Part shown: one piece after another, positions 6,175 to 62,426 of the stretch
Layout: every line of letters starts with the position of its first letter
Position numbering within the stretch: position 1 is the first letter of the stretch
Assembly: GCA_021734905.1 (NCBI GenBank)
Contig: JAIPIB010000003.1
Location: 1,334 to 65,333 of the forward strand
DNA length: 64,000 nt
Direction: 5' to 3'
Origin: Minisyncoccota bacterium
GTDB lineage: Bacteria > Patescibacteriota > Minisyncoccia > Phycocordibacterales > UBA918
Notes under the pieces: generated by a model
Told to the model about the DNA's origin: nothing
Database searches by the model: none
What the model saw: only the letters and a program-made list of their open reading frames with translations
Position numbers and translations under genes: made by a program

Positions 6175-8991
6175 TTAGAGACGAGCAAGAACAGACTCTT
6201 CCTCTCTAACATGCAAACCAAGGAGAAGGAGGACGAGACCAATGGCCGCTATCGCAATCGACGCTATAGCAAAGAGAGCGTTTGTTCTGAAAAATGACGG
6301 ATCTGCTTGAACGGTAATTTTTTCAGTTACTGCCGCATTGGTATACGCCTCAGCTGTCTTAACAAATGGAAGTGGGTTACTTCGCGCCACAACATATCCG
6401 GCGTTGTCCGTTATTCCTGCATACACCTCATGTGTACCATTCTCAAGTTCTTTATCAAGAATGTAACTCCATCCACCATCACTATCTGTTCGTACTGTCA
6501 CAACAATTGGAGTACTATAGATATAAAGCGTAACAAAACTATTTGGTAAAGCTCGCCCTGAAATAATTGCCCGTTTTGGAGTTTCGAGGCCTGTGAGATC
6601 AACGTTGTCTGATAACGCTGTTATCGACTCAACAACAAGAAGATCCTCACGAGTAATTCCTGAATCTTTCGGTGACTCGTAGACTACAAGCGCCTCACTG
6701 CTGCTGTCGTGTGGATTATAGCCCCGTGCGATTTCTGAACCATCCGTAAAACCATCCCCATCCGTGTCAGCAGAAAATGGATTCGTATTATATAGATTTA
6801 CTTCGTCGTAATCAGAAATCTCATCCTTATCTGAGTCCAGTATGACAGCATCTCCAATTCGTTCTTTAAGTATTGCTTCATTTTTTATTGTTACTTCTTC
6901 AAGTTGCGCAGTAACTTGAGAAATGTATGAATTAACATCATTAGCAACACTTTTTCGCTCGTCTTCTTGATTAAAATTTCTTAGTGCATCCTGTTGTATT
7001 TCCTTGATACTCTCCTTAACGCGCTGGCGCTCGTTTTCACTACCAGATCGTTCCGCTTTTGCAAGATCATTAAGCTTACTGTGAAGTGACGACCTGTAGT
7101 CAGTCAAAATTGTTTGGATTTCTGACTTTATCTCATCATCTGCTTCAACAGAATTTATAAATGAATTGACAGCTTGTACATACACTACTTTTGGTGGAGC
7201 TGACTGATCATTATTAGTGACTGAAATGATTTCTGATGCGACTTTAGCTTGTGATTCATCTTTAAATGAAATAAGGGAATCGTCAGCTTTTGTTAGAGTT
7301 TCGATTTTTAATTCCTGCTCAGGAGTAAACGTAGACATCAGCTCATTGTGTACTGTAACCTGACTTTTGCTACCTTCTATAAAGCCATACGGAGATTTAA
7401 CACGTGCGTAGACATCATAATCGCCGTTTGGTGACTCTTTTGTAATCCAAGTATATTTCCATTCTGATGAAGAGACTCTTCTTGCTAGGCCAAGAAATTG
7501 TGCCGTCAATGAACTTCTTGGTTTTGCAAAAATCTCTACTGAATCAACCCTAGGAGCAGTTACAATAATATCAACATAGCCTGAAAACGGACTTTTTTTA
7601 GAGAAATCAATTCCAACACTAGGTTTTAAAAAATCAGTTGAGCTAGAAACTTTTTGCACATACTTCTCCTCGGGCTTTACAATCTCTGTAAGGGTAACAA
7701 CAGGTGACAAAGCCTCAATTTCATTCTTGACAATTACTGTCTTAAGAAGACTCTGGCGAGACTCGTTATTAACAACAGCATGTGCAGTTATCTCAAAACG
7801 TCCGTTTGGAACCTTCTTTGTATTCCAAGTTAAGTGCCAATAATCAGTATCGGAACGAGTGGCAGAGCCTACAAAGTAAGGCGTTCGCGTCTTTTCTCCC
7901 CGAGCATATACTTTTATCTCAGATGCCTCATTAGCCAATATCTTCAAAAGGATACTATTAGAAAGATACCTATCGTTGGGCAAAATAAGGAGAACTTGGT
8001 CTTTATGTTCATTTATTTCAGGGACCATCAAAGGTTCATCATTTTCAACTTGTTTAGTGCCTCCATCGTCATAATTCTGCGTTGTTGTTGCAATTTTCTC
8101 TATTGAATCATCAGTGATTTTTACTAATTCAGAATTAATTTTGTCCTGATTCGTATTGTCCATAATACCATTCTCATCTTTAGGCTCCTCTCTAGGGGAA
8201 ATAATTTCAGGAAGCTTATTCGCCACTGAATATATTGCCGAATCAATCTGCTCATATGAACCATGTAAATTTTTTATAACAGTTCTGAGATTATATTCAC
8301 CATTATCATACTGTCGAGTATCCCAAAGTGATTTCCAATTATTATTATCAATCCGCACCGCAGAGCCAACAGGAATCAAACGGCCATCCTTTTTTCTTTC
8401 TGCAATAAGTTTTACCTCACTTGCGTTACCTACGGAAACAGTAACAGGGACGACATTTGCAAACGGAGTGCCTGTCCCTGGTGAAAGCCTTACAGCAGGT
8501 TGTGTCTCAGTATTCAAGATTCTTGAGGTATCAATGATACCAATAAAATTTGCCTGCTGTGCAGTCCGCGTATAATTCGCACCACTCATGCGACTTTCGG
8601 TTGTTACTTCGGGATCAACAATGTACTGAAGATTCAAAAGTGAAAAAAAGGTCCCTGCGAGTACAAAAAATACACCTGCTATTCTTGCTGCAAGAGCAAC
8701 TGTTTTTGTGTTAAGAGATGGGAATCTGTAAGGCGACAAACAAACAATTTGTAACTGTGCCTTTGTAATCAATTTTTCCTTACTCTTCTTAACAGAGTTA
8801 TCAGTAATTACAATTTTAGGATTCTGTGTACTTTTTAAAAGTTTTACATTAATTTTTTTCTTTGTCTTGACCTTAGCAACATCAATTTTAACCGAAGCAG
8901 TACTTTCTTTTTTTCGAGTTTTTTTCGCCCGCGTTGGCACAGTTTTCGTAATTGCACGTACTGCGGGGCCTTTCTTAGCTTTTACAACCAT
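6175..8991 (-). CDS. large membrane protein with basic N-terminal tail, extracytoplasmic region and thrombospondin-type-3-like Ca-binding repeat
   Basis: 938 aa; KK/RK-rich N-terminus then TM; DTDGDGFTDGSEIARGYNP motif; C-terminal TM (ALFAIASIAIAAIGLVLLLLGL). Confidence 0.5.
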   Translation of the reverse strand: MVVKAKKGPAVRAITKTVPTRAKKTRKKESTASVKIDVAKVKTKKKINVKLLKSTQNPKIVITDNSVKKSKEKLITKAQLQIVCLSPYRFPSLNTKTVALAARIAGVFFVLAGTFFSLLNLQYIVDPEVTTESRMSGANYTRTAQQANFIGIIDTSRILNTETQPAVRLSPGTGTPFANVVPVTVSVGNASEVKLIAERKKDGRLIPVGSAVRIDNNNWKSLWDTRQYDNGEYNLRTVIKNLHGSYEQIDSAIYSVANKLPEIISPREEPKDENGIMDNTNQDKINSELVKITDDSIEKIATTTQNYDDGGTKQVENDEPLMVPEINEHKDQVLLILPNDRYLSNSILLKILANEASEIKVYARGEKTRTPYFVGSATRSDTDYWHLTWNTKKVPNGRFEITAHAVVNNESRQSLLKTVIVKNEIEALSPVVTLTEIVKPEEKYVQKVSSSTDFLKPSVGIDFSKKSPFSGYVDIIVTAPRVDSVEIFAKPRSSLTAQFLGLARRVSSSEWKYTWITKESPNGDYDVYARVKSPYGFIEGSKSQVTVHNELMSTFTPEQELKIETLTKADDSLISFKDESQAKVASEIISVTNNDQSAPPKVVYVQAVNSFINSVEADDEIKSEIQTILTDYRSSLHSKLNDLAKAERSGSENERQRVKESIKEIQQDALRNFNQEDERKSVANDVNSYISQVTAQLEEVTIKNEAILKERIGDAVILDSDKDEISDYDEVNLYNTNPFSADTDGDGFTDGSEIARGYNPHDSSSEALVVYESPKDSGITREDLLVVESITALSDNVDLTGLETPKRAIISGRALPNSFVTLYIYSTPIVVTVRTDSDGGWSYILDKELENGTHEVYAGITDNAGYVVARSNPLPFVKTAEAYTNAAVTEKITVQADPSFFRTNALFAIASIAIAAIGLVLLLLGLHVREEESVLARL

Positions 8992-26179: not shown

Positions 26180-26767
26180 CTAGATACTTTTTACGTAACC
26201 GAGCATCGTGTCAGCATCACTCACTTCAAATGGGTCTGATTCACAGTTATCGCTGAATCCCGGCTCAATAAATACTTTTTTTATTTCACCGTTATCAACA
26301 AACATACTGTATCTCCATGACCGACTGCCAAATCCTAGATTATCTTTTTTTACGAGCATCCCAACTTTTTCAGTAAATTCGAATGAACCATCTGGAATAA
26401 GCTGTACTTTGGTAACTCCTTGCCCCCTACCCCACTCATACATGACAAATGGATCGTTGACGCTCACACAGTAAATTGCATCAATACCAAGTGCTTTAAA
26501 TTCCTCAAACTTGGATTCATAGCCTGGAAGATGCGTTGATGAACATGTAGGTGTATATGCTCCTGGCAAAGCAAAGACAATTACCTTCTTTCCAGAGAAC
26601 ATTTCGTCTGTGGTTAACTCTCCCCACTCTGCATCAATAGCTGAACAGAGACCTGTTTGAACTTCGTGTGGCACACGAACCTTAAAAGTAACTTCTGGTA
26701 CCTGCTTTACAAAATTTTCTTCTGTCATATTTTCAATAAATATTATTGTGGGTAAATCAAATTTCAA
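26180..26767 (-). CDS. peroxiredoxin, Prx5 subfamily
   Basis: VIVFALPGAYTPTCSSTHLPGY peroxidatic Cys motif. Confidence 0.8.
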   Translation of the reverse strand: MKFDLPTIIFIENMTEENFVKQVPEVTFKVRVPHEVQTGLCSAIDAEWGELTTDEMFSGKKVIVFALPGAYTPTCSSTHLPGYESKFEEFKALGIDAIYCVSVNDPFVMYEWGRGQGVTKVQLIPDGSFEFTEKVGMLVKKDNLGFGSRSWRYSMFVDNGEIKKVFIEPGFSDNCESDPFEVSDADTMLGYVKSI

Positions 26768-32525: not shown

Positions 32526-33251
32526 ATGAACCCAAAATTACTGCCAATTACTGCAATTACAAAAAAGGATATCCTAATTCTGGAAGACGCCTCGGCACCA
32601 TTAGTAATTAGTCTTCCTGTACACGACATAATTGATGCAACATGGGTTCGTCTTACGTCAGAAAATAAAAATTTATATGAGGCACCACTGGTACGCTTTA
32701 TAGATTTTGTGGAAGATGATTATGAAATCCGTTTACGCACAGCAACCGACATAACCTACAAACATGTAGTTGGTCTTCGTAATACAGTTGATTTTTTAGA
32801 TAAAATTCCAAAAGAACAACTCTTTCAAGCTCTAACGGCTATTGCTATAGTAAAAACTAGTGATAATTTCACTATACTTGTAGAACGGGATACTGGTGAC
32901 TGGCCACACTCACTTGAACTTCCAGGTACATTCATTCGAACACATATTTACGAAAAAGGTCTTTACGAATCAACGTTGGATTTTTTACACGGTGACCTTG
33001 GAATTGCAAAAATGGACATCAAAAATCATTCTTTGATTGGAATTCTTGATTACATTTCAATTTGCGAAATGATGCTTGTGTATCAAATCAATCTATCCAT
33101 ATCTTTTAATGAACTCACTAAACTGTCACCAAAAAACATCTTTTCCTTACCAAAAGGTTACACCACCGAGAAGCATCTGAGCTTCTTTGAACTCCCTCTG
33201 CATGTACCTACACAGACAGTGCTCAATACTAACTTTAACCACCAATTTTAA
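32526..33251 (+). CDS. hypothetical protein
   Basis: 241-aa ORF, no confident motif. Confidence 0.4.
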   Translation: MNPKLLPITAITKKDILILEDASAPLVISLPVHDIIDATWVRLTSENKNLYEAPLVRFIDFVEDDYEIRLRTATDITYKHVVGLRNTVDFLDKIPKEQLFQALTAIAIVKTSDNFTILVERDTGDWPHSLELPGTFIRTHIYEKGLYESTLDFLHGDLGIAKMDIKNHSLIGILDYISICEMMLVYQINLSISFNELTKLSPKNIFSLPKGYTTEKHLSFFELPLHVPTQTVLNTNFNHQF

Positions 33252-33508: not shown

Positions 33509-34252
33509 ATGTTCCGAGAATCACTAAAATTAGTTAAGAATGAGAAGGAAGAAAAAAATGAGCTTGCAGCACTTATGGAAAGGCGTGAGGTTCTTTTTCA
33601 TGAACTACTCCAACTGCCTGCGGTAAAGGAAGCATCTCTGCTCTTAGATAAATTACCTAAGCTTGTATATCACACAAAAGAACACACTTTCGGTGAAGAT
33701 GGTGTCATTGCTGAAACAATTCTCTTCGGTCTCGCTGACAACATTTCACGCGGAGCACTAGAGCAACAAGTTATCGCAGCTGCATGGCACGATGTTGGAT
33801 ACCTTGAGCAATACACAAACAATGAACCTGTTGCAATAAAACTTTTCACAGAAAGTGAGGCCTACAAGCAACTTGGTCCAGACATTCGCGATGAAATTGC
33901 TGCAAATATTGCAGATACAGCAATGGTCTTTAAGGATACTGGACCACACCTGCACATGTCACACAGCACCCTTGGATACATGATGGATGCAGATGTAAGT
34001 AATTTTGGAAGAACTGATTTTGAAGAGTGTAAGAAAAAAATAGCTCTTGAGACTGGCGTTGATCTTAGTGACCCAGCGCAGGAAGAAAAAATGGACAGAT
34101 TTGTTATTAACTTACTTGAGAACCACACATGGCACACCGAAGGTGCTCGAAAACTACGTGAAGAACAGAAACAAAAAAATCTTACATCTTTACGTTCTAA
34201 GTATCCAGATCTTAAGTCTGGATATGAAATCAAAGAAAGAAAAGCCGCGTAA
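33509..34252 (+). CDS. HD-domain phosphohydrolase
   Basis: H...H...HD arrangement (YHTKEHTFGEDG...AAAWHDVGY). Confidence 0.55.
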   Translation: MFRESLKLVKNEKEEKNELAALMERREVLFHELLQLPAVKEASLLLDKLPKLVYHTKEHTFGEDGVIAETILFGLADNISRGALEQQVIAAAWHDVGYLEQYTNNEPVAIKLFTESEAYKQLGPDIRDEIAANIADTAMVFKDTGPHLHMSHSTLGYMMDADVSNFGRTDFEECKKKIALETGVDLSDPAQEEKMDRFVINLLENHTWHTEGARKLREEQKQKNLTSLRSKYPDLKSGYEIKERKAA

Positions 34253-34356
34253 TCTTGATTTGAAAACACCAGCACCCAATCACAACAAAGAATACTCTCT
34301 TTGATGTTTGGTAAAGTTATCTTTACACACACATAAACACGCTATAGAATGCAAAT

Positions 34357-34569
34357 ATGCAAGAAAGTATACAAAATGAGGTGTCTCAATATCGAGCAAA
34401 CTTAAACGTAACGCAAGAAGAACTTGCGTGCGCTGTTGGGGTAAGTCGACAAACCATCATTGCGCTCGAGAAAGGTAATTATACGCCATCAATTCTTCTT
34501 GCACTTAAAATTTCACATTTTTTTAATATCCCAATCGAAACTTTATTTTCAATATCATATGAAAAATAA
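34357..34569 (+). CDS. XRE-family (Cro/C1-type) HTH transcriptional regulator
   Basis: 70 aa; [30 protein letters not shown] helix-turn-helix. Confidence 0.8.
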
Positions 34570-34921
34570 TTTACTTGAGATACTCACCACACTTTGTTTG
34601 ATCATTATTGCTATATTGCTTCTTAATCCTTTTGATTTTTGGATGCCTGACATGATGGTACTAGGAATGCTTGCCGGAGCACTCGTCCTTTTTGGTATCT
34701 TCGCAAGCTTCATTCTTCGTGAAAAAACTATCGATGAACGTGACGCAATGCATGAGACACTCGCTGGAAGAAATGCTTTTCTTGCTGGTTCAACAGTTCT
34801 TATACTAGGTACAGTAGTTCAAGGATATACACACTCAGTCGATCCTTGGCTCGTTATTGCACTTATTACCATGATTGTTGCAAAATTCATGTCAAGAATG
34901 TGGAGTGATACAAACCTGTAA
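34558..34921 (+). CDS. small membrane protein translationally coupled to the XRE regulator
   Basis: ATG at 34558 overlaps the XRE stop by 12 nt; 121 aa, 3-4 TM helices; XRE + small membrane protein pairs are common. Confidence 0.5.
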
Positions 34922-34936
34922 CTCAACTATCCCCAA

Positions 34937-36613
34937 TTGAAATGTAAAGTTAACTTTACATTTCAAACTATCCAAACTATACTGGCATACATGCATGTAT
35001 ACAAAAAAATCTTTTTGATAAGTACTCTTATATTATTACTTGGGTTTTGCTACTACATTTTTTCGCCTTTATTTATAAAAATATCTATTAATGATGTTTT
35101 GCCTGTTGAACGGACCACGAGCTCCACTGACACTGCAATAATCCCTGACGTTACACGATACCCGATTACTGGAACATCTGGACATCCAGCACAAGGAACT
35201 GTTCAGCTTATTACTACTGATACGGAAAGGGTTATCCGCTATGAAGATTTTAAAACAATCAATGGACCTGATTTATTTGTCTATCTTAGTAAAGATATTG
35301 ATGGAAAGGAATTTATTAATCTAGGAGAAATTAAGGGAACTGAAGGCAACATTAACTATCTTATCCCTTCTGATGTTGACCTAGCAACATACCACTACGT
35401 TCTAACCTGGTGCAAACAATTTGGCGTCCTCTTTAACTACGCAGATATTATGTCTAACTCATCATCAACAGAAATTACGCAAACAACTTCAACCGACAAC
35501 ACTTCTACACAAACTTCGAGTGAAGTATCACCTTCAATTACGGTGCCCCCAGCTGCACCTGTTATAAAAAAGACAGCTCTTCTTGCGAACGGATGCTTCT
35601 GGTGTGTTGAAAATGACCTAAAAAAAGTCACTGGTGTCATTGATGTAATTTCTGGGTATGCAGGGGGCAACACTGAATCGCCGACATATAAAAATTATAC
35701 AGAAGGCGGACATCGTGAAGTTGTACTTGTTACTTATAACGCCTCAGAAATTACCTTCGCAAATTTAGTTGAACACATAATTAAGCATGGCGACCCAACA
35801 GATTCTCAAGGATCATTTAATGATAGAGGGGAGGAATATGCTCCTGCAATTTACTACGAGAATAGTACTGAAAAAGCAGAGGCCGAACGTGTTATTCAAG
35901 CAATTGATATGCTCGGGATTTTTAATAATCCACTCCCCCTTCCTGTATTACCACGAGCAATCTTTTGGCCAGCAGAGGATTACCATCAAGATTATGCAAC
36001 GAAGAACCCTATCAGATATACCTATTATAGAAGTGCTTCAGGCAGAGATAGTTTTATTAAAAAATACTGGAGCGGTTCAGAAAATACATTTGTCGTACCG
36101 AAGCTTGAAGTTGAGTCTGGTGCAATATTACCCAGTGATGTCATTTCGAAAGAAGAATCTTGGACACAATTTTTAAAACCTTCAAATGACATTCTCCAGT
36201 CACTTCTTACTCCACTTCAATATAAAGTGACTCAAAAAGACGGAACTGAAAGCCCTTACACAAATATCTACGACAAACTTTATGATGATGGAGTTTATGT
36301 AGATATTGTTTCTGGTGAGCCTCTCTACCTATCAAAAGACAAGTACGATTCTGGAACTGGATGGCCTTCCTTTGTTAAACCCATTTCTCTAGAGGCGGTA
36401 ACACTCAAGGAAGATAACGGTTTGTTCTCGAAAAGAACTGAGGTTCGATCAAAATATGCTGACTCACACCTTGGACACGTCTTTGACGATGGGCCTGCTG
36501 ATCGTGGTGGAAAGCGCTACTGTATGAACTCAGCAGCATTACGATTTATACCTCGCGATATGATGGAACAAGAAGGCTATGCTTATATCTTTCCACTTAT
36601 GGATACCGAATAA
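34937..36613 (+). CDS. msrAB: membrane-anchored DM13 domain + peptide-methionine sulfoxide reductase MsrA + MsrB tri-domain protein
   Basis: N-terminal TM; DM13 block (GHPAQGTVQLI...FKTINGPDLFVYLS...YHYVLTWCKQFGVLF); MsrA GCFWCVE active site; MsrB RYCMNSAALRF/HLGHVFDDGP motifs. Confidence 0.85.
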   Translation: MKCKVNFTFQTIQTILAYMHVYKKIFLISTLILLLGFCYYIFSPLFIKISINDVLPVERTTSSTDTAIIPDVTRYPITGTSGHPAQGTVQLITTDTERVIRYEDFKTINGPDLFVYLSKDIDGKEFINLGEIKGTEGNINYLIPSDVDLATYHYVLTWCKQFGVLFNYADIMSNSSSTEITQTTSTDNTSTQTSSEVSPSITVPPAAPVIKKTALLANGCFWCVENDLKKVTGVIDVISGYAGGNTESPTYKNYTEGGHREVVLVTYNASEITFANLVEHIIKHGDPTDSQGSFNDRGEEYAPAIYYENSTEKAEAERVIQAIDMLGIFNNPLPLPVLPRAIFWPAEDYHQDYATKNPIRYTYYRSASGRDSFIKKYWSGSENTFVVPKLEVESGAILPSDVISKEESWTQFLKPSNDILQSLLTPLQYKVTQKDGTESPYTNIYDKLYDDGVYVDIVSGEPLYLSKDKYDSGTGWPSFVKPISLEAVTLKEDNGLFSKRTEVRSKYADSHLGHVFDDGPADRGGKRYCMNSAALRFIPRDMMEQEGYAYIFPLMDTE

Positions 36614-36627
36614 TATATAATTCTTAT

Positions 36628-36999
36628 ATGAGTAAAATACTTGAGTTACTAAAAATAACAGGAATACCAGTTGTACTCGCATCACTGTGTTGCCTATCCC
36701 CTATTATTCTCGTTCTTTTAGGTGTTTCAACAGTGAGCTTCGCATCTTCGCTTTCTGATACATTTTATGGTGATTATAAATGGGCCTTTAGACTCGTTGG
36801 CCTTCTAGCATTACTTCTATCTCTTGCCTATTATCTCCGTCGTAAAAAAGGAATTTGTACCATAGACGACGTTAAACGAAGACGCAATGAAGTTATAAAT
36901 TACCTCGCGCTAACTGTCGTGGGAGGTGTCCTTGGATATATCTTTTTTCTCTATGTCGTTGTTCACTATACAGGCGTCTGGCTTACACTTTGGAAGTGA
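36628..36999 (+). CDS. small 3-TM membrane protein with MerT-like CC motif in TM1
   Basis: LASLCCLSPIILVLLG resembles the MerT TM1 motif (ASACCLGPLVL); additional Cys in the loop (KKGICT). Confidence 0.5.
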   Translation: MSKILELLKITGIPVVLASLCCLSPIILVLLGVSTVSFASSLSDTFYGDYKWAFRLVGLLALLLSLAYYLRRKKGICTIDDVKRRRNEVINYLALTVVGGVLGYIFFLYVVVHYTGVWLTLWK

Positions 37000-59889: not shown

Positions 59890-60744
59890 CTAGCTCCTTA
59901 CCAGAACATCCCAATGATCTCCCTCTTGCGCATAAATAGTTCCATCAGGCGCTGTATACATAGTGGCTCCGTCACTCCTAACTCCAGAATTTTTATAGTT
60001 TGTGATTATATATGTATTAAGCTTTGGGTTCATGCGAGCATCATATTTATACCCATTTCCATGACTTGTTGCTCCTGCGGCATGACCACCTGTGGACTCT
60101 GTTCCTCCGGTAATTGTTACATCACAATTACAATCTCTTTTAAGGTCAATTGCATCTTTAATAGTGGCGTCTCTTATCCCTTGAAGTGACGTACATCCTG
60201 ACGTTCCACTGCAATCAGCTTGTACTTTTCCTCCTGAACTAGTGACCGAAACATTTGCTGCTGTAAGACGATTGACAGCGTCATCTTGTGACAATCCACC
60301 TCCCTTTCCGACTGAAGCAACAGAGGGGGCTTGTGAAGACTGAGATGTTGCACTTGGAATTCCTGGTACACATTGAATTTCATTCCAAGGACCAAGGAGA
60401 GCTCCTTCGTTAAGGAGAAGTTTGAGTGCAGTATCAACGATAAGGTATCCAGAGAGAAGAATAACAAAACCAACCACTGAATTCGTCATCGTCGTACGCG
60501 CCTGAGATATTGCTTCAGTTGAACCACCAGACATAACCATTTTCATCCCTCCGAACGCAAACATGAGTGCGATAATGGTCGCCATAATTCCAATAAACCA
60601 TGAAATGAGTTTTTGTCCGAGCTCAACAAAATCACACGCTTGACAATCTGGACCATCACAAGGAACAATCCCTTCTCCAGCAAACGTCAACGCAGGAACT
60701 GATATAAGTAGTGCAAGAAAGACTACGAGTAAGGTGCGTTTCAT
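59890..60744 (-). CDS. fusion of Patescibacteria-type T4SS pilin-like (TrbC/VirB2-like) domain with C-terminal LAS-type (M15-like) zinc peptidase-like domain
   Basis: signal peptide, IVPCDGPDCQACDFVELGQKLISWFIGIMATIIALMFAFGGMKMVMSGG + second TM (pilin-like pattern); C-terminus TSHGNGYKYD (SxHxxGxAxD-like) and EGDHWD (ExxH-like). Start taken at MKRTLLVV (GGTGAG RBS); ORF-track 5' extension to 60990 rejected. Confidence 0.55.
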   Translation of the reverse strand: MKRTLLVVFLALLISVPALTFAGEGIVPCDGPDCQACDFVELGQKLISWFIGIMATIIALMFAFGGMKMVMSGGSTEAISQARTTMTNSVVGFVILLSGYLIVDTALKLLLNEGALLGPWNEIQCVPGIPSATSQSSQAPSVASVGKGGGLSQDDAVNRLTAANVSVTSSGGKVQADCSGTSGCTSLQGIRDATIKDAIDLKRDCNCDVTITGGTESTGGHAAGATSHGNGYKYDARMNPKLNTYIITNYKNSGVRSDGATMYTAPDGTIYAQEGDHWDVLVRS

Positions 60745-60836
60745 ACTCACCATCTTATCATGTTCCTTTGTAACACTTTTACTAAACAGTGAATTGTGGT
60801 ACTTTATAACCTGTCTCTCGGGACATTCAGATACAT

Positions 60837-60893
60837 GCGTCGGTGGCAGAGTGAGAAAGTCTGGTAGACTTTCGCAAGAGGTTGTCGATATTT
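60837..60893 (+). other. 17-nt exact copy of the tRNA-Tyr 5' end followed by a hairpin and conserved AAGAGGTTGTCGATATTT, ~140 nt upstream of tRNA-Tyr
   Basis: GCGTCGGTGGCAGAGTG identical to tRNA-Tyr positions 1-17; hairpin GAAAGTCT-GGT-AGACTTTC (60855-60873); motif shared with the tRNA-Leu upstream element. Confidence 0.7.
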
Positions 60894-60993
60894 CGTTGAG
60901 AAATATCATACAATCTGAACAGCGCCTGTAAGGCGGTAACGAAGTCAAATGCCTGTTATAATCAAAGCGTCTTTGATGACAGGTCAACATAAT

Positions 60994-61859: not shown

Positions 61860-62426
61860 TCACAGATACTTTAGTCGAAGTCCTTCATTTTTTAAGTCAC
61901 ACAATGAATCGTATATGTCATGCATTACAACCCGCAACATCCGAAAATGTGTAAAGTTGTGTGCCACACACCCGTCTGCAATGAAGTTGTGCTCACCCTG
62001 TGTATACAGGTTAAACACTGGTTCAGTTGTTCCGGTTGGCGCAATACTCTTGATACAAGAATGTGCCGCTTTTGACGAACTGATGCGCATGATGCTGTCA
62101 CCTGGACTGAGCTTTTTAATCGACTGATATCCTTTATCAGTCATAAAGCTATGGCCCAAAGTACAGATCATTCCAACATCATCTGATTCAAAAGTTACAT
62201 TGACCAGTGGTGCTGGTTCGTGAACCAACTTGCGAGTGATTCGTCTTGGGACCAAAATGCCCTTTTTGTATGACAGAACCATTTCCCCTTCGGACAAATC
62301 TCCGATAGGAATTTTGCCACTCGGTGTTTCTATAAGTGTAGACTTGGGGAAACAATCCCAAGAATATTCAATACCTCTGGTACCTGCGCCTGGCAAATCA
62401 TTATCTACGTCAGAGTGCTTACCCAT
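61860..62426 (-). CDS. free-standing Hint/mini-intein-like (bacterial intein-like) domain protein
   Basis: block A CFPKSTLIETPSGKIPIGDL after a 24-aa leader; block B TLGHSFMT; blocks F/G EPVFNLYTQGEHNFIADGCVAHN; 31-aa tail after the HN beginning with Phe, not Cys/Ser/Thr. Confidence 0.7.
   Translation of the reverse strand: MGKHSDVDNDLPGAGTRGIEYSWDCFPKSTLIETPSGKIPIGDLSEGEMVLSYKKGILVPRRITRKLVHEPAPLVNVTFESDDVGMICTLGHSFMTDKGYQSIKKLSPGDSIMRISSSKAAHSCIKSIAPTGTTEPVFNLYTQGEHNFIADGCVAHNFTHFRMLRVVMHDIYDSLCDLKNEGLRLKYL

Follow-up and report, generated by a model that had tools for sequence, protein, structure and literature searches.

A putative MerT-superfamily thiol relay associated with surface methionine sulfoxide reductases in an operon of CPR bacteria

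An operon of Candidatus Pacebacteria (CPR), found in the 64-kb stretch of DNA analyzed here (the window), would repair oxidized methionine outside the cell. In the reading that we favor by a little over even chances, this operon is controlled by an XRE/DUF2178 pair, a thiol relay of the MerT superfamily feeds a surface MsrAB protein, and the DM13 domain is an optional part. As judged from sequence comparisons, the most likely role of the MerT-like protein is to bring reducing power across the membrane to the surface MsrAB.

Exported methionine sulfoxide reductases (Msr) matter both for virulence and for the survival of oxidative stress. To our knowledge, the sole accepted electron supply of these enzymes is thioredoxin (Trx) via CcdA/DsbD, with quinol via MsrPQ for the molybdoenzymes. 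CPR bacteria have very small genomes, live attached to the cells of their hosts and in most cases possess no respiratory chain, and a conserved, regulated surface-repair module would be informative on the stresses that they face. If the proposed relay exists, it would be a second and much smaller membrane thiol relay, i.e., a new way of moving reducing equivalents across the membrane. It would also provide a function for a family now labelled 'MerT' or 'hypothetical' in >1000 CPR sequences, and would suggest that mercury transport and redox relays are evolutionarily connected. The hypothesis is directly testable because the system offers a defined operator and regulator, natural fusions and three invariant Cys residues.

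The Anchored DM13-MsrA-MsrB Protein

The exported, membrane-anchored DM13-MsrA-MsrB protein is encoded at 34991–36613 of the forward strand. The listed TTG start at 34937 falls inside a non-coding 30-bp palindrome (34937–34966); the true start is the ATG at 34991, which gives a 540-aa product identical to the NCBI call (P0391). In Pfam searches with the 558-aa mechanical ORF (34937–36613), to which the following residue numbers refer, DM13 (PF10517; aa 81–170, 55.9 bits, cutoff 25), PMSR/MsrA (PF01625; aa 213–362, 155.5 bits) and SelR/MsrB (PF01641; aa 424–539, 150.5 bits) were all matched. The sequence-only reading had proposed these three domains in one membrane-anchored protein, and apart from the start codon it is confirmed. 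On the DNA, the TM anchor (about 35000–35070) is followed by DM13 (35177–35446), an S/T-rich linker, MsrA (35573–36022) and MsrB (36206–36553).

The window MsrA has the catalytic GCFWC motif with the resolving Cys at +3. The window MsrB contains RYCMN, has another residue in place of the resolving Cys (GTGWPSF) and has no Zn-binding CxxC, indicating a 1-Cys, Zn-less form. The N-terminus consists of KK followed by the TM anchor. From this terminus, the position of TM segments before the catalytic domains and the topology of related fusions (see below), we infer that the window MsrAB is extracytoplasmic.

The MerT-Like Membrane Protein

The next gene (36628–36999, forward strand) encodes a 123-aa MerT-superfamily protein with three TM segments and an N-in/C-out topology. 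It begins 14 nt past the msrAB stop codon, and this short gap suggests that the two genes are probably co-transcribed; no terminator-like site was seen between them. The score of the protein against MerT (PF02411) is 28.7 bits (E 1.5e-6), under the Pfam cutoff of 32.9, and that against NCBIfam MerT (NF010314) is 31.3 bits, far short of the cutoff of 150. These sub-cutoff scores suggest a member of the MerT superfamily rather than a MerT equivalog. Homology was found to MerT, MerTP and MerF only; a PDB sequence search gave only MerF (E 0.024), and a fold search of PDB with the AF2 model, which is of moderate quality (pLDDT 72), gave no meaningful match. With three TM segments and no match to DsbD_TM, the protein does not belong to CcdA/DsbD (PF02683/PF13386); it may act like CcdA without being a member of that family.

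Of the three hydrophobic helices, helix 1 carries C21 and C22, and C77 lies in the basic loop RRKKGICTIDDVKRRRNE. The MerT-like Cys pair in the first helix and the loop Cys noted in the sequence-only reading are therefore both present, in a protein whose MerT score is below the cutoff. The vicinal pair, within LASLCCLSP, is invariant in 34 relatives; across this set, which extends down to 28% identity, no alignment column other than those of C21, C22 and C77 is invariant. The CPR proteins themselves form a very tight, CPR-specific clade (75–87% identity). In MerT, the cytoplasmic TM2–TM3 loop bears a second pair of Cys residues. This second pair is absent from the whole clade, in which the single C77 occurs (G[IV]CT[IL]D); loop Cys pairs are kept only in distant, true-MerT-like relatives (P0236 and P0244). 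Loop 2 contains eight K/R residues versus three D/E residues, suggesting that this loop is cytoplasmic and that the C-terminus, with any MsrAB or Trx fused to it, is outside.

Linkage to Exported Msr

Of 80 species-level CPR loci with a MerT-like gene, 51 have an Msr gene directly beside it: upstream in 26 loci, downstream in 13, divergent in eight, and fused in four as a single MerT-like~MsrA~MsrB ORF (L027, L029, L033, L034; Pfam run on L027). Random placement in genomes of about 1000 genes would yield well under one adjacency, and the number of loci, the four arrangements and the fusions rule out chance. In the fusions, MsrAB follows an odd number (three) of TM helices, and the basic loop 2 is cytoplasmic. 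In addition, a MerT-like~Trx fusion (P0130, WCPTC) occurs on seven contigs, and its Trx resembles the anchored Trx of Msr operons (3.9e-22).

A TM segment precedes the catalytic domains in 51 of the 54 Msr ORFs of these loci, suggesting that nearly all are exported. The exported enzymes all share a signature: GCFWC in MsrA (51/51) and GTGWPSF, without the resolving Cys, in MsrB (57/57); cytoplasmic paralogues differ, with GCFWG in MsrA and a Zn-type MsrB. Enzymes with the exported signature would need an external reductant. The extracytoplasmic location of the Msr domains and their pairing with the MerT-like gene, both put forward in the sequence-only reading, agree with the wider set of loci.

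In the remaining 29 of the 80 loci, no redox gene lies beside the MerT-like gene and no consistent redox neighbor was found; the neighborhoods showed nothing more than fusA synteny, pilins and ABC-F genes, and in L005 the two preceding genes encode one LRR protein and one membrane protein resembling hydrolases. Among 20 distant MerT-like representatives, Pfam analysis revealed no cytoplasmic donor domain in the N-terminal extensions, and the only domains identified were Trx (P0130) and HMA (true MerTP). The gene contexts of two distant relatives (P0142 and P0133) were uninformative. A literature search found no paper tying MerT or DM13 to Msr and nothing relevant on Msr in Patescibacteria.

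Proposed Mechanism of Electron Transfer

In the proposed mechanism, each turnover would oxidize the surface enzyme, forming a disulfide in MsrA (C-F-W-C) and a sulfenate at the lone Cys of MsrB; the MerT-like protein would then re-reduce MsrAB by thiol-disulfide exchange. C77 on the cytoplasmic loop would be reduced by cytoplasmic thioredoxin, or by a flavoprotein disulfide reductase, and electrons would then pass from C77 to the membrane-embedded pair C21–C22. This pair, to which the outer loop, itself invariant, and the polar position H113 would give access, might reduce MsrAB directly; alternatively, where an exported Trx is encoded, electrons might pass from C21–C22 to this Trx and then to MsrAB. 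The MerT-like protein would thereby do the job of CcdA/DsbD known from streptococci, Fusobacterium and Neisseria, and across CPR genomes it would occur alone, beside CcdA/Trx, or replaced by CcdA/Trx. DM13 would belong to the same stress regulon as an optional surface module and would not be needed as an electron carrier. Counting against such a relay, C21–C22 lies just 8–9 residues deep in TM1 as measured from the cytoplasm, and none of the Cys residues is exposed to the outside; a cavity or a conformational change would be needed.

Generalized to the family, this reading is somewhat more tentative, and we put it slightly below even chances: the CPR MerT-like proteins would be an unrecognized class of transmembrane electron transporters that work by thiol-disulfide exchange, are minimal in size (three TM segments, about 123 aa) and have no relationship to CcdA/DsbD; they would use the loop Cys and the vicinal pair to power surface MsrAB and thioredoxins. 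MerT and MerF would then be metal-handling relatives, and DM13 would be a surface domain with a degenerate Cu,Zn-SOD fold and part of the same oxidative-damage regulon.

CcdA and Thioredoxin in Related Operons

In about 10 of the 80 loci, CcdA and two thioredoxins are found alongside the MerT-like gene in one operon. The conduit could therefore be another protein, with the MerT-like protein in some complementary role. XRE-led operons with anchored Trx, CcdA and the MerT-like gene include L008, L011, L013, L015, L022, L069, L042 and L044, among others. The MerT-like protein might accordingly be an Msr accessory, i.e., a docking or assembly partner or a resolving thiol for the 1-Cys MsrB, while electrons would cross the membrane via CcdA, whose gene might lie in the operon or at another genomic site. 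We regard this as unlikely, although it deserves the most serious consideration among the alternatives. It is consistent with the uniform loss of the resolving Cys from the linked MsrB proteins, with the location of the CC pair in the inner third of TM1, and with the invariant outer loop (VSFASSLxDTLYGDYKW), which suggests a docking surface. However, a purely external role hardly explains the invariant cytoplasmic C77. Also, the MerT-like fusions parallel those of CcdA, which is fused to a TlpA-like protein in L008 and to MsrAB in L042/L044; CcdA and MerT-like proteins thus have the same two kinds of fusion partner (thioredoxin-fold and MsrAB). The true CcdA homologues in the related loci are encoded by genes separate from the MerT-like gene.

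The distribution of the genes further argues against an accessory role. The MerT-like gene is the sole membrane redox candidate in the operons of the window, L001, L021 and L096 and in most two-gene modules. Conversely, L095, in which DM13-MsrAB is accompanied by CcdA and two thioredoxins, has no MerT-like gene within 4 kb. DM13-MsrAB has the MerT-like gene as its only such partner in the window, L001 and L096, and CcdA/Trx alone in L095. Within the 64-kb window, no CcdA or exported Trx was found. The only thioredoxin-fold ORF found there (26180–26767) encodes a cytosolic Prx5-type peroxiredoxin, not an exported Trx, and the neighboring 221-aa ORF is not CcdA.

The transmembrane relay remains our preferred reading, and its proposed status as an undescribed route distinct from the CcdA–thioredoxin pathway holds in part: no description of such a route was found in the literature search, but the shared operons of about 10 loci and the CcdA/Trx set of L095 show that the two systems are not strictly separate.

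Comparison With Known Systems

Fused MsrA-MsrB proteins supplied by CcdA/DsbD and a surface thioredoxin are known from Streptococcus pneumoniae, where CcdA1/2, Etrx1/2 and MsrAB2 work together (PMC3914529), and from S. gordonii (PMC7034828) and F. nucleatum (PMC9239216); Neisseria PilB works with DsbD (table in PMC13488963). A 2026 review gives Trx with DsbD/CcdA as the only partners of exported MsrAB. Like these CcdA/DsbD–Etrx/TlpA–MsrAB systems, the CPR modules place an anchored or exported MsrA-MsrB fusion and a small, Cys-bearing integral membrane protein in one operon, include thioredoxin-fold proteins in related loci, are probably induced by oxidative stress, and have the same logical need for cytoplasmic reducing power. 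Unlike CcdA, which has six TM segments and one Cys in each of two repeats, the constant partner here has three TM segments in 123 aa, with a vicinal CC and one loop Cys. The window operon also differs in lacking thioredoxin, in having an extra DM13 domain and the XRE/DUF2178 regulator pair, and in belonging to a CPR bacterium. The MsrPQ system likewise repairs methionine sulfoxide outside the cytoplasm, but its molybdopterin/heme chemistry and proteins are wholly different; neither a Mo enzyme nor a heme b membrane subunit is present here.

MerT, MerF and MerTP (PF02411; MerF structures 2M67 and 2MOZ) share with the MerT-like protein detectable homology over TM1–TM3, CC-x-x-P in TM1, the 3-TM N-in arrangement, a Cys-bearing basic cytoplasmic loop and the concept of a thiol relay. 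This likeness raises the possibility that the protein is a genuine transporter of thiophilic metals (Hg, Cu, Ag, Cd), linked to Msr only through a common thiol-stress regulon, a possibility that we consider improbable. The restriction of homology to the Mer proteins is in its favor, as is the agreement of the TM1 motif CC[LF]xP with the Hg-binding pair; MerA homologues have also been reported in some CPR bacteria (PMC8261052), and in L078 a MerA-like gene (CVNVGCVPSK, C-terminal CC) adjoins the MerT-like gene. This is, however, the only ORF with the MerA redox motif across 87 loci and the window. No MerP-type gene adjoins a MerT-like gene, the few HMA-motif ORFs being large P-type ATPases or lying elsewhere in the locus, and no MerR-type regulator was seen in these loci; the genes of a mer operon are thus not assembled here. 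The scores below both curated MerT cutoffs and the replacement of the second cytoplasmic Cys pair by the single invariant C77 also disfavor a metal transporter, and in-frame fusions to MsrAB and thioredoxin would make no sense for a metal importer. As a general reading, a mercury operon is rejected, the neighbors being Msr, Trx, CcdA and XRE genes.

The DM13 Domain

An electron-transfer role of DM13 was reportedly proposed on computational grounds by Iyer et al. in 2007. The window domain scores above the Pfam threshold and has the single conserved Cys of the family, like DM13 of the Skeletor/Knickkopf type (PF10517); unlike the latter, it is bacterial, TM-anchored, without DOMON and fused to MsrAB. 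If DM13 were an extracytoplasmic redox partner, its Cys might shuttle electrons between the MerT-like protein and MsrAB, in place of the thioredoxin domain of Neisseria PilB. In support of this, 22 DM13 homologues have one invariant Cys (WC(K/R)xF, WCKQF), one invariant His and an invariant TM anchor motif (YYxISPLF). Fusions also recur: all three domains of DM13-MsrA-MsrB are present in about 60 of 120 proteins among the matches listed, each representing one 90%-identity cluster, and DM13 genes adjoin the module in L037, L064 and L081.

Other observations make this role improbable. Most linked MsrAB proteins have no DM13: in the 80-locus set the domain occurs in none of them, and a separate DM13 gene lies within about 5 kb in only five loci. 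DM13 is mostly a stand-alone anchored protein in contexts that are usually unrelated (L088, L090), and the L087 operon combines it with MsrA and MsrB enzymes that are cytoplasmic. The domain is predicted to fold like Cu,Zn-SOD, not like thioredoxin, although the SOD metal ligand set is missing and DM13 is not a member of the Cu,Zn superoxide dismutases. Furthermore, DM13-MsrAB in L095 is paired with two thioredoxins anyway. DM13 is a facultative add-on of the module and not an obligate part; the earlier suggestion that it is a redox partner in the electron route is not supported by these comparisons.

Regulator, Operator and Upstream Genes

The module lies downstream of a 70-aa XRE-family HTH regulator (34357–34569, forward strand; Pfam HTH_3, 49.8 bits), as previously noted; an HD hydrolase proposed farther upstream (33509–34252) had no Pfam match even at E<=1 and was not confirmed. 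The XRE protein is the presumed repressor of the module, and homologues lead the same operon in L001, L008, L011, L013, L015, L020–L023, L042, L044, L069, L087 and L094–L096. Between the XRE gene and msrAB lies a gene missing from the sequence-only reading (34559–34921, forward strand), which overlaps the XRE stop by 11 nt and encodes a 120-aa, DUF2178-like protein with three TM segments. The window protein itself has no significant Pfam match; its homologue in L087 is PF09946 (DUF2178). The DUF2178-like gene is always paired with XRE, and its product may be a membrane sensor or a partner of the regulator.

A perfect 30-bp palindrome (34937–34966) made of two 15-nt halves, TTGAAATGTAAAGTT and AACTTTACATTTCAA, is a putative operator. 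It overlaps a promoter-like site consisting of TTTACA at 34955, a 17-nt spacer and TATACT (end at 34983, 8 nt from the ATG of msrAB). The control region, which had been described as palindrome-rich, contains this one perfect operator-like palindrome and one degenerate copy, TGGTAAAGTTATCTTTACAC (34309–34328), and no more than these. The degenerate copy is located just 5' of the XRE gene and overlaps a promoter-like TTTACA-17-TAGAAT (34322–34350); an equivalent operator-like site lies 5' of XRE in L001, L008, L011, L013, L015, L020, L023, L069 and L087. The operator core ATGTAAAG-N4-CTTTACAT is kept at the same place as the perfect palindrome in L001, L021, L022, L042, L044 and L087. This conserved putative operator would link the module to the upstream XRE/DUF2178 pair. 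In total, 19 operator sites were found in the loci, versus 0.6 in shuffled sequences.

Organization of the redox module

The module, from a Candidatus Pacebacteria MAG (CPR/Patescibacteria), comprises four co-oriented genes in the window. The first (34357-34569) encodes the XRE-type HTH regulator (HTH_3, 49.8 bits) that the sequence-only reading had placed upstream of the module. The second (34559-34921), which overlaps the XRE stop, encodes a 120-aa three-helix membrane protein without a significant Pfam match, the homologue of which in the related CPR locus L087 is recorded as DUF2178. The third (34991-36613) encodes a 540-aa DM13-MsrA-MsrB protein, and the fourth (36628-36999), starting 14 nt past the preceding stop with no terminator-like site found in between, a 123-aa MerT-like protein. 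The mechanical ORF of the large protein begins at TTG 34937, inside a perfect 15+15-nt palindrome (34937-34966) overlapped by a promoter-like TTTACA-17-TATACT site; ATG 34991 yields the 540-aa protein, the same as the NCBI call (P0391, 100% identity). The ORF at 33509-34252 (247 aa), proposed to be an HD hydrolase, contains AAWHDVGY; this assignment is unconfirmed. Neither it nor the ORF at 32526-33251 (241 aa) has a Pfam match even at E<=1.

DM13 (55.9 bits), PMSR (155.5 bits) and SelR (150.5 bits) are all matched by Pfam in the large protein, as had been claimed, and NCBIfam agrees in assigning MsrA and MsrB. Its N-terminus consists of KK and a single hydrophobic helix, and a Ser/Thr-rich linker sets DM13 apart from MsrA. 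In the numbering of the 540-aa protein, Cys residues are located in the anchor (C20), DM13 (C141, WCKQF), MsrA (C202/C205, GCFWC) and MsrB (C511, RYCMN); the MsrB has GTGWPSF where the resolving-Cys motif would be and is devoid of the Zn-binding CxxC. The first observation, DM13-MsrAB with a MerT-like gene, is confirmed, and its interpretation as a whole is partly supported.

The MerT-like protein

The 123-aa protein matches MerT weakly (Pfam, 28.7 bits versus a cutoff of 32.9; NCBIfam MerT, 31 versus 150), and the proposed Cys pair in the first helix and loop Cys are present (C21-C22 and C77). By sequence, MerF is its sole solved relative (E 0.024); the AlphaFold model, of moderate confidence (pLDDT 72), consists of three long helices, and Foldseek gave no match to it. 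Loop 2 (RRKKGICTIDDVKRRRNE) contains eight K/R versus three D/E, predicting a cytoplasmic loop 2 and thus an N-in/C-out topology. C21-C22 sit in the inner third of TM1, and the protein has no outward-facing Cys.

The family is large, unusually conserved, yet compact: it has 1099 matches, the best 120 at 73-87% identity (the window's own protein excepted), and just 244 matches at E<=1e-3 among 1.84 billion 50%-identity cluster representatives. C21, C22 and C77 are the sole invariant columns in an alignment including relatives down to 28% identity; in the core clade, invariance extends to H113 and the external loop VSFASSLxDTLYGDYKW. In distant relatives (P0141, 598 aa; P0131, P0133 and P0143), a fourth TM helix is added after a GLPWA motif, and the N-terminal portion of P0141 is a 447-aa multi-TM domain without a Pfam match.

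Linkage to exported Msr

A scan with one genome per species gave 80 loci with a MerT-like gene, labelled CPR-type MAGs throughout, and their six-frame ORFs were searched with the window's domains to place Msr. On the same strand, Msr is upstream of the MerT-like gene in 26 loci and downstream in 13; it is divergent in eight, fused with MerT-like in one ORF in four (L027, L029, L033 and L034), and absent within about 6 kb in 29, where no redox neighbour recurs beside the MerT-like gene. Pfam resolves the L027 fusion into MerT (weak), PMSR and SelR. A hydrophobic segment precedes the catalytic domains in 51 of the 54 Msr ORFs, and exactly three such segments precede Msr in the fusion proteins, indicating that these enzymes are exported or anchored outside. 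There is strong support, in line with the original proposal, for a partnership of the MerT-like protein with Msr and for the location of Msr outside.

Cys signatures differ between exported and cytoplasmic Msr: the exported enzymes have GCFWC in 51/51 MsrA and GTGWPSF in 57/57 MsrB, whereas GCFWG MsrA and Zn-type MsrB characterize the cytoplasmic paralogues (L001 and L087). These cytoplasmic-size paralogues (L001, 3062-3589, minus strand; L087, 4096-4975) adjoin the XRE/DUF2178 module.

A putative thiol relay and the CcdA/thioredoxin system

In known exported MsrAB systems, thioredoxin-fold partners are fed by CcdA or DsbD (PMC3914529; PMC7034828; PMC9239216), and a 2026 review tabulates only thioredoxin-fold/CcdA/DsbD partners for exported MsrAB (PMC13488963). 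A literature search found no paper tying MerT-family or DM13 proteins to Msr. In the protein P0130 (258 aa, seven contigs), a thioredoxin domain (WCPTC) that matches the anchored thioredoxin of Msr operons at 3.9e-22 lies C-terminal to a MerT-like domain. Like CcdA, the MerT-like domain is thus fused N-terminally to a thioredoxin-fold domain and to MsrAB; topology would place both partners outside. These shared fusion partners, together with the invariance of the membrane Cys pair and of the cytoplasmic Cys, make it plausible that the MerT-like protein acts as a transmembrane thiol-disulfide relay. The P0130 gene stands alone beside an RND efflux operon (L091-L093, 6001-6777).

The relay had been claimed to be independent of CcdA/thioredoxin, which is unsupported as a general claim. 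The L008 operon encodes, in order, XRE, DUF2178, a TM-anchored thioredoxin (WCPTC), a CcdA~TlpA-like fusion (DsbD_TM, 44 bits, and Redoxin), MsrAB and the MerT-like protein; this layout is also present in L011, L013, L015, L022 and L069, and partially in L014 and L065. In L042 and L044, an anchored thioredoxin gene precedes a CcdA-like domain fused directly to MsrAB, and then the MerT-like gene. In L052 and L078, Trx-CcdA lies 1-1.7 kb from the MerT-like gene. The natural fusions are CcdA~TlpA-like thioredoxin of 420 aa (L008, 3481-4743) and CcdA-like~MsrA~MsrB of 616 aa (L042, 4135-5985; also L044). In L008, L010, L011, L013, L015, L065 and L069, the stretch of MsrAB from the TM anchor to MsrA includes a conserved segment with a Cys, KIPSIPKQSCLEHNxEKHMKKTQ; these are Moranbacteria-type operons also carrying CcdA/Trx.

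The reverse approach, starting from DM13-MsrAB proteins, gave L094, L095 and L096. The expected co-occurrence with a MerT-like gene holds for L096, which has the same four-gene operon as the window; it does not for L094, where none was found within 4 kb, or for L095 (XRE, DUF2178, Trx, CcdA, Redoxin and DM13-MsrAB). Given this varied operon make-up, MerT-like and CcdA/Trx components are found singly or jointly.

A predicted XRE regulon

The 64-kb window contains two copies of the operator core ATGTAAAG-N4-CTTTACAT, one ahead of XRE (34309-34328, three mismatches) and a perfect one ahead of msrAB (34937-34966). The loci contain 19 sites with <=1 mismatch, versus 0.6 in shuffles, nearly all of which immediately precede either XRE or the first redox gene past DUF2178. 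One or both positions are occupied in L001, L003, L008, L011, L013, L015, L020-L023, L042, L044, L069 and L087, the site in L003 being ahead of a SOUL-MsrAB-MerT-like operon. The sites and their positions define a predicted autoregulated XRE regulon, which would extend across CPR lineages and combine Trx, CcdA, MsrAB, DM13 and MerT-like genes differently from locus to locus.

The role of DM13

Nearly all of the nearest homologues of the window DM13 part (336 matches) stand alone as proteins of about 150 aa, and the anchor motif YYxISPLF, a single Cys and a single His are invariant among the homologues. The tri-domain form is also recurrent: about 60 among the 120 large-protein matches listed, each representing one 90%-identity cluster, contain DM13, MsrA and MsrB and share 49-66% identity with the window protein, and many are on contigs equal in size to contigs with MerT-like matches. 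Separate DM13 genes directly adjoin the module in L037, L064 and L081, and occur in unrelated contexts in L088 and L090; in L087, the XRE/DUF2178 pair and the same operator are followed by cytoplasmic-size MsrB and MsrA and then DM13. This distribution makes DM13 look like a non-obligatory surface member of the same stress regulon. A redox or electron-carrier role, as suggested initially, is neither supported as a general claim nor needed.

Mercury-related and other genes

No MerP-type gene was found beside the MerT-like gene in the loci; HMA-motif ORFs are few and are large P-type ATPases or located elsewhere in the locus, and true MerT-HMA fusions are confined to the most distant matches of the MerT-like search. 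Some CPR are reported to have MerA homologues (PMC8261052). Across 87 loci and the window, the MerA redox motif is present in one ORF only, a 468-aa MerA-like flavoprotein disulfide reductase (CVNVGCVPSK, C-terminal CC) in L078, a Peregrinibacteria MAG locus (6404-7807, minus strand), convergent with the MerT-like gene. A related Pyr_redox_2 gene (6204-7637) closes the DM13-MsrAB operon of L095. These two proteins could be cytoplasmic reductases for the putative relay, or true mercury genes.

Elsewhere in the window, all on the minus strand, are a cytosolic Prx5-type peroxiredoxin gene (26180-26767; Redoxin, 90.5 bits; PGAYTPTCS), a 366-aa ORF (59890-60990) with a T4SS_pilin match (28.2 bits), similar to a T4SS_pilin gene in L088, and a 188-aa ORF (61860-62426) with matches to Hint_2 (30 bits) and, below the cutoff, to Intein_splicing (29 bits), which could be either an intein or a free-standing Hint domain.
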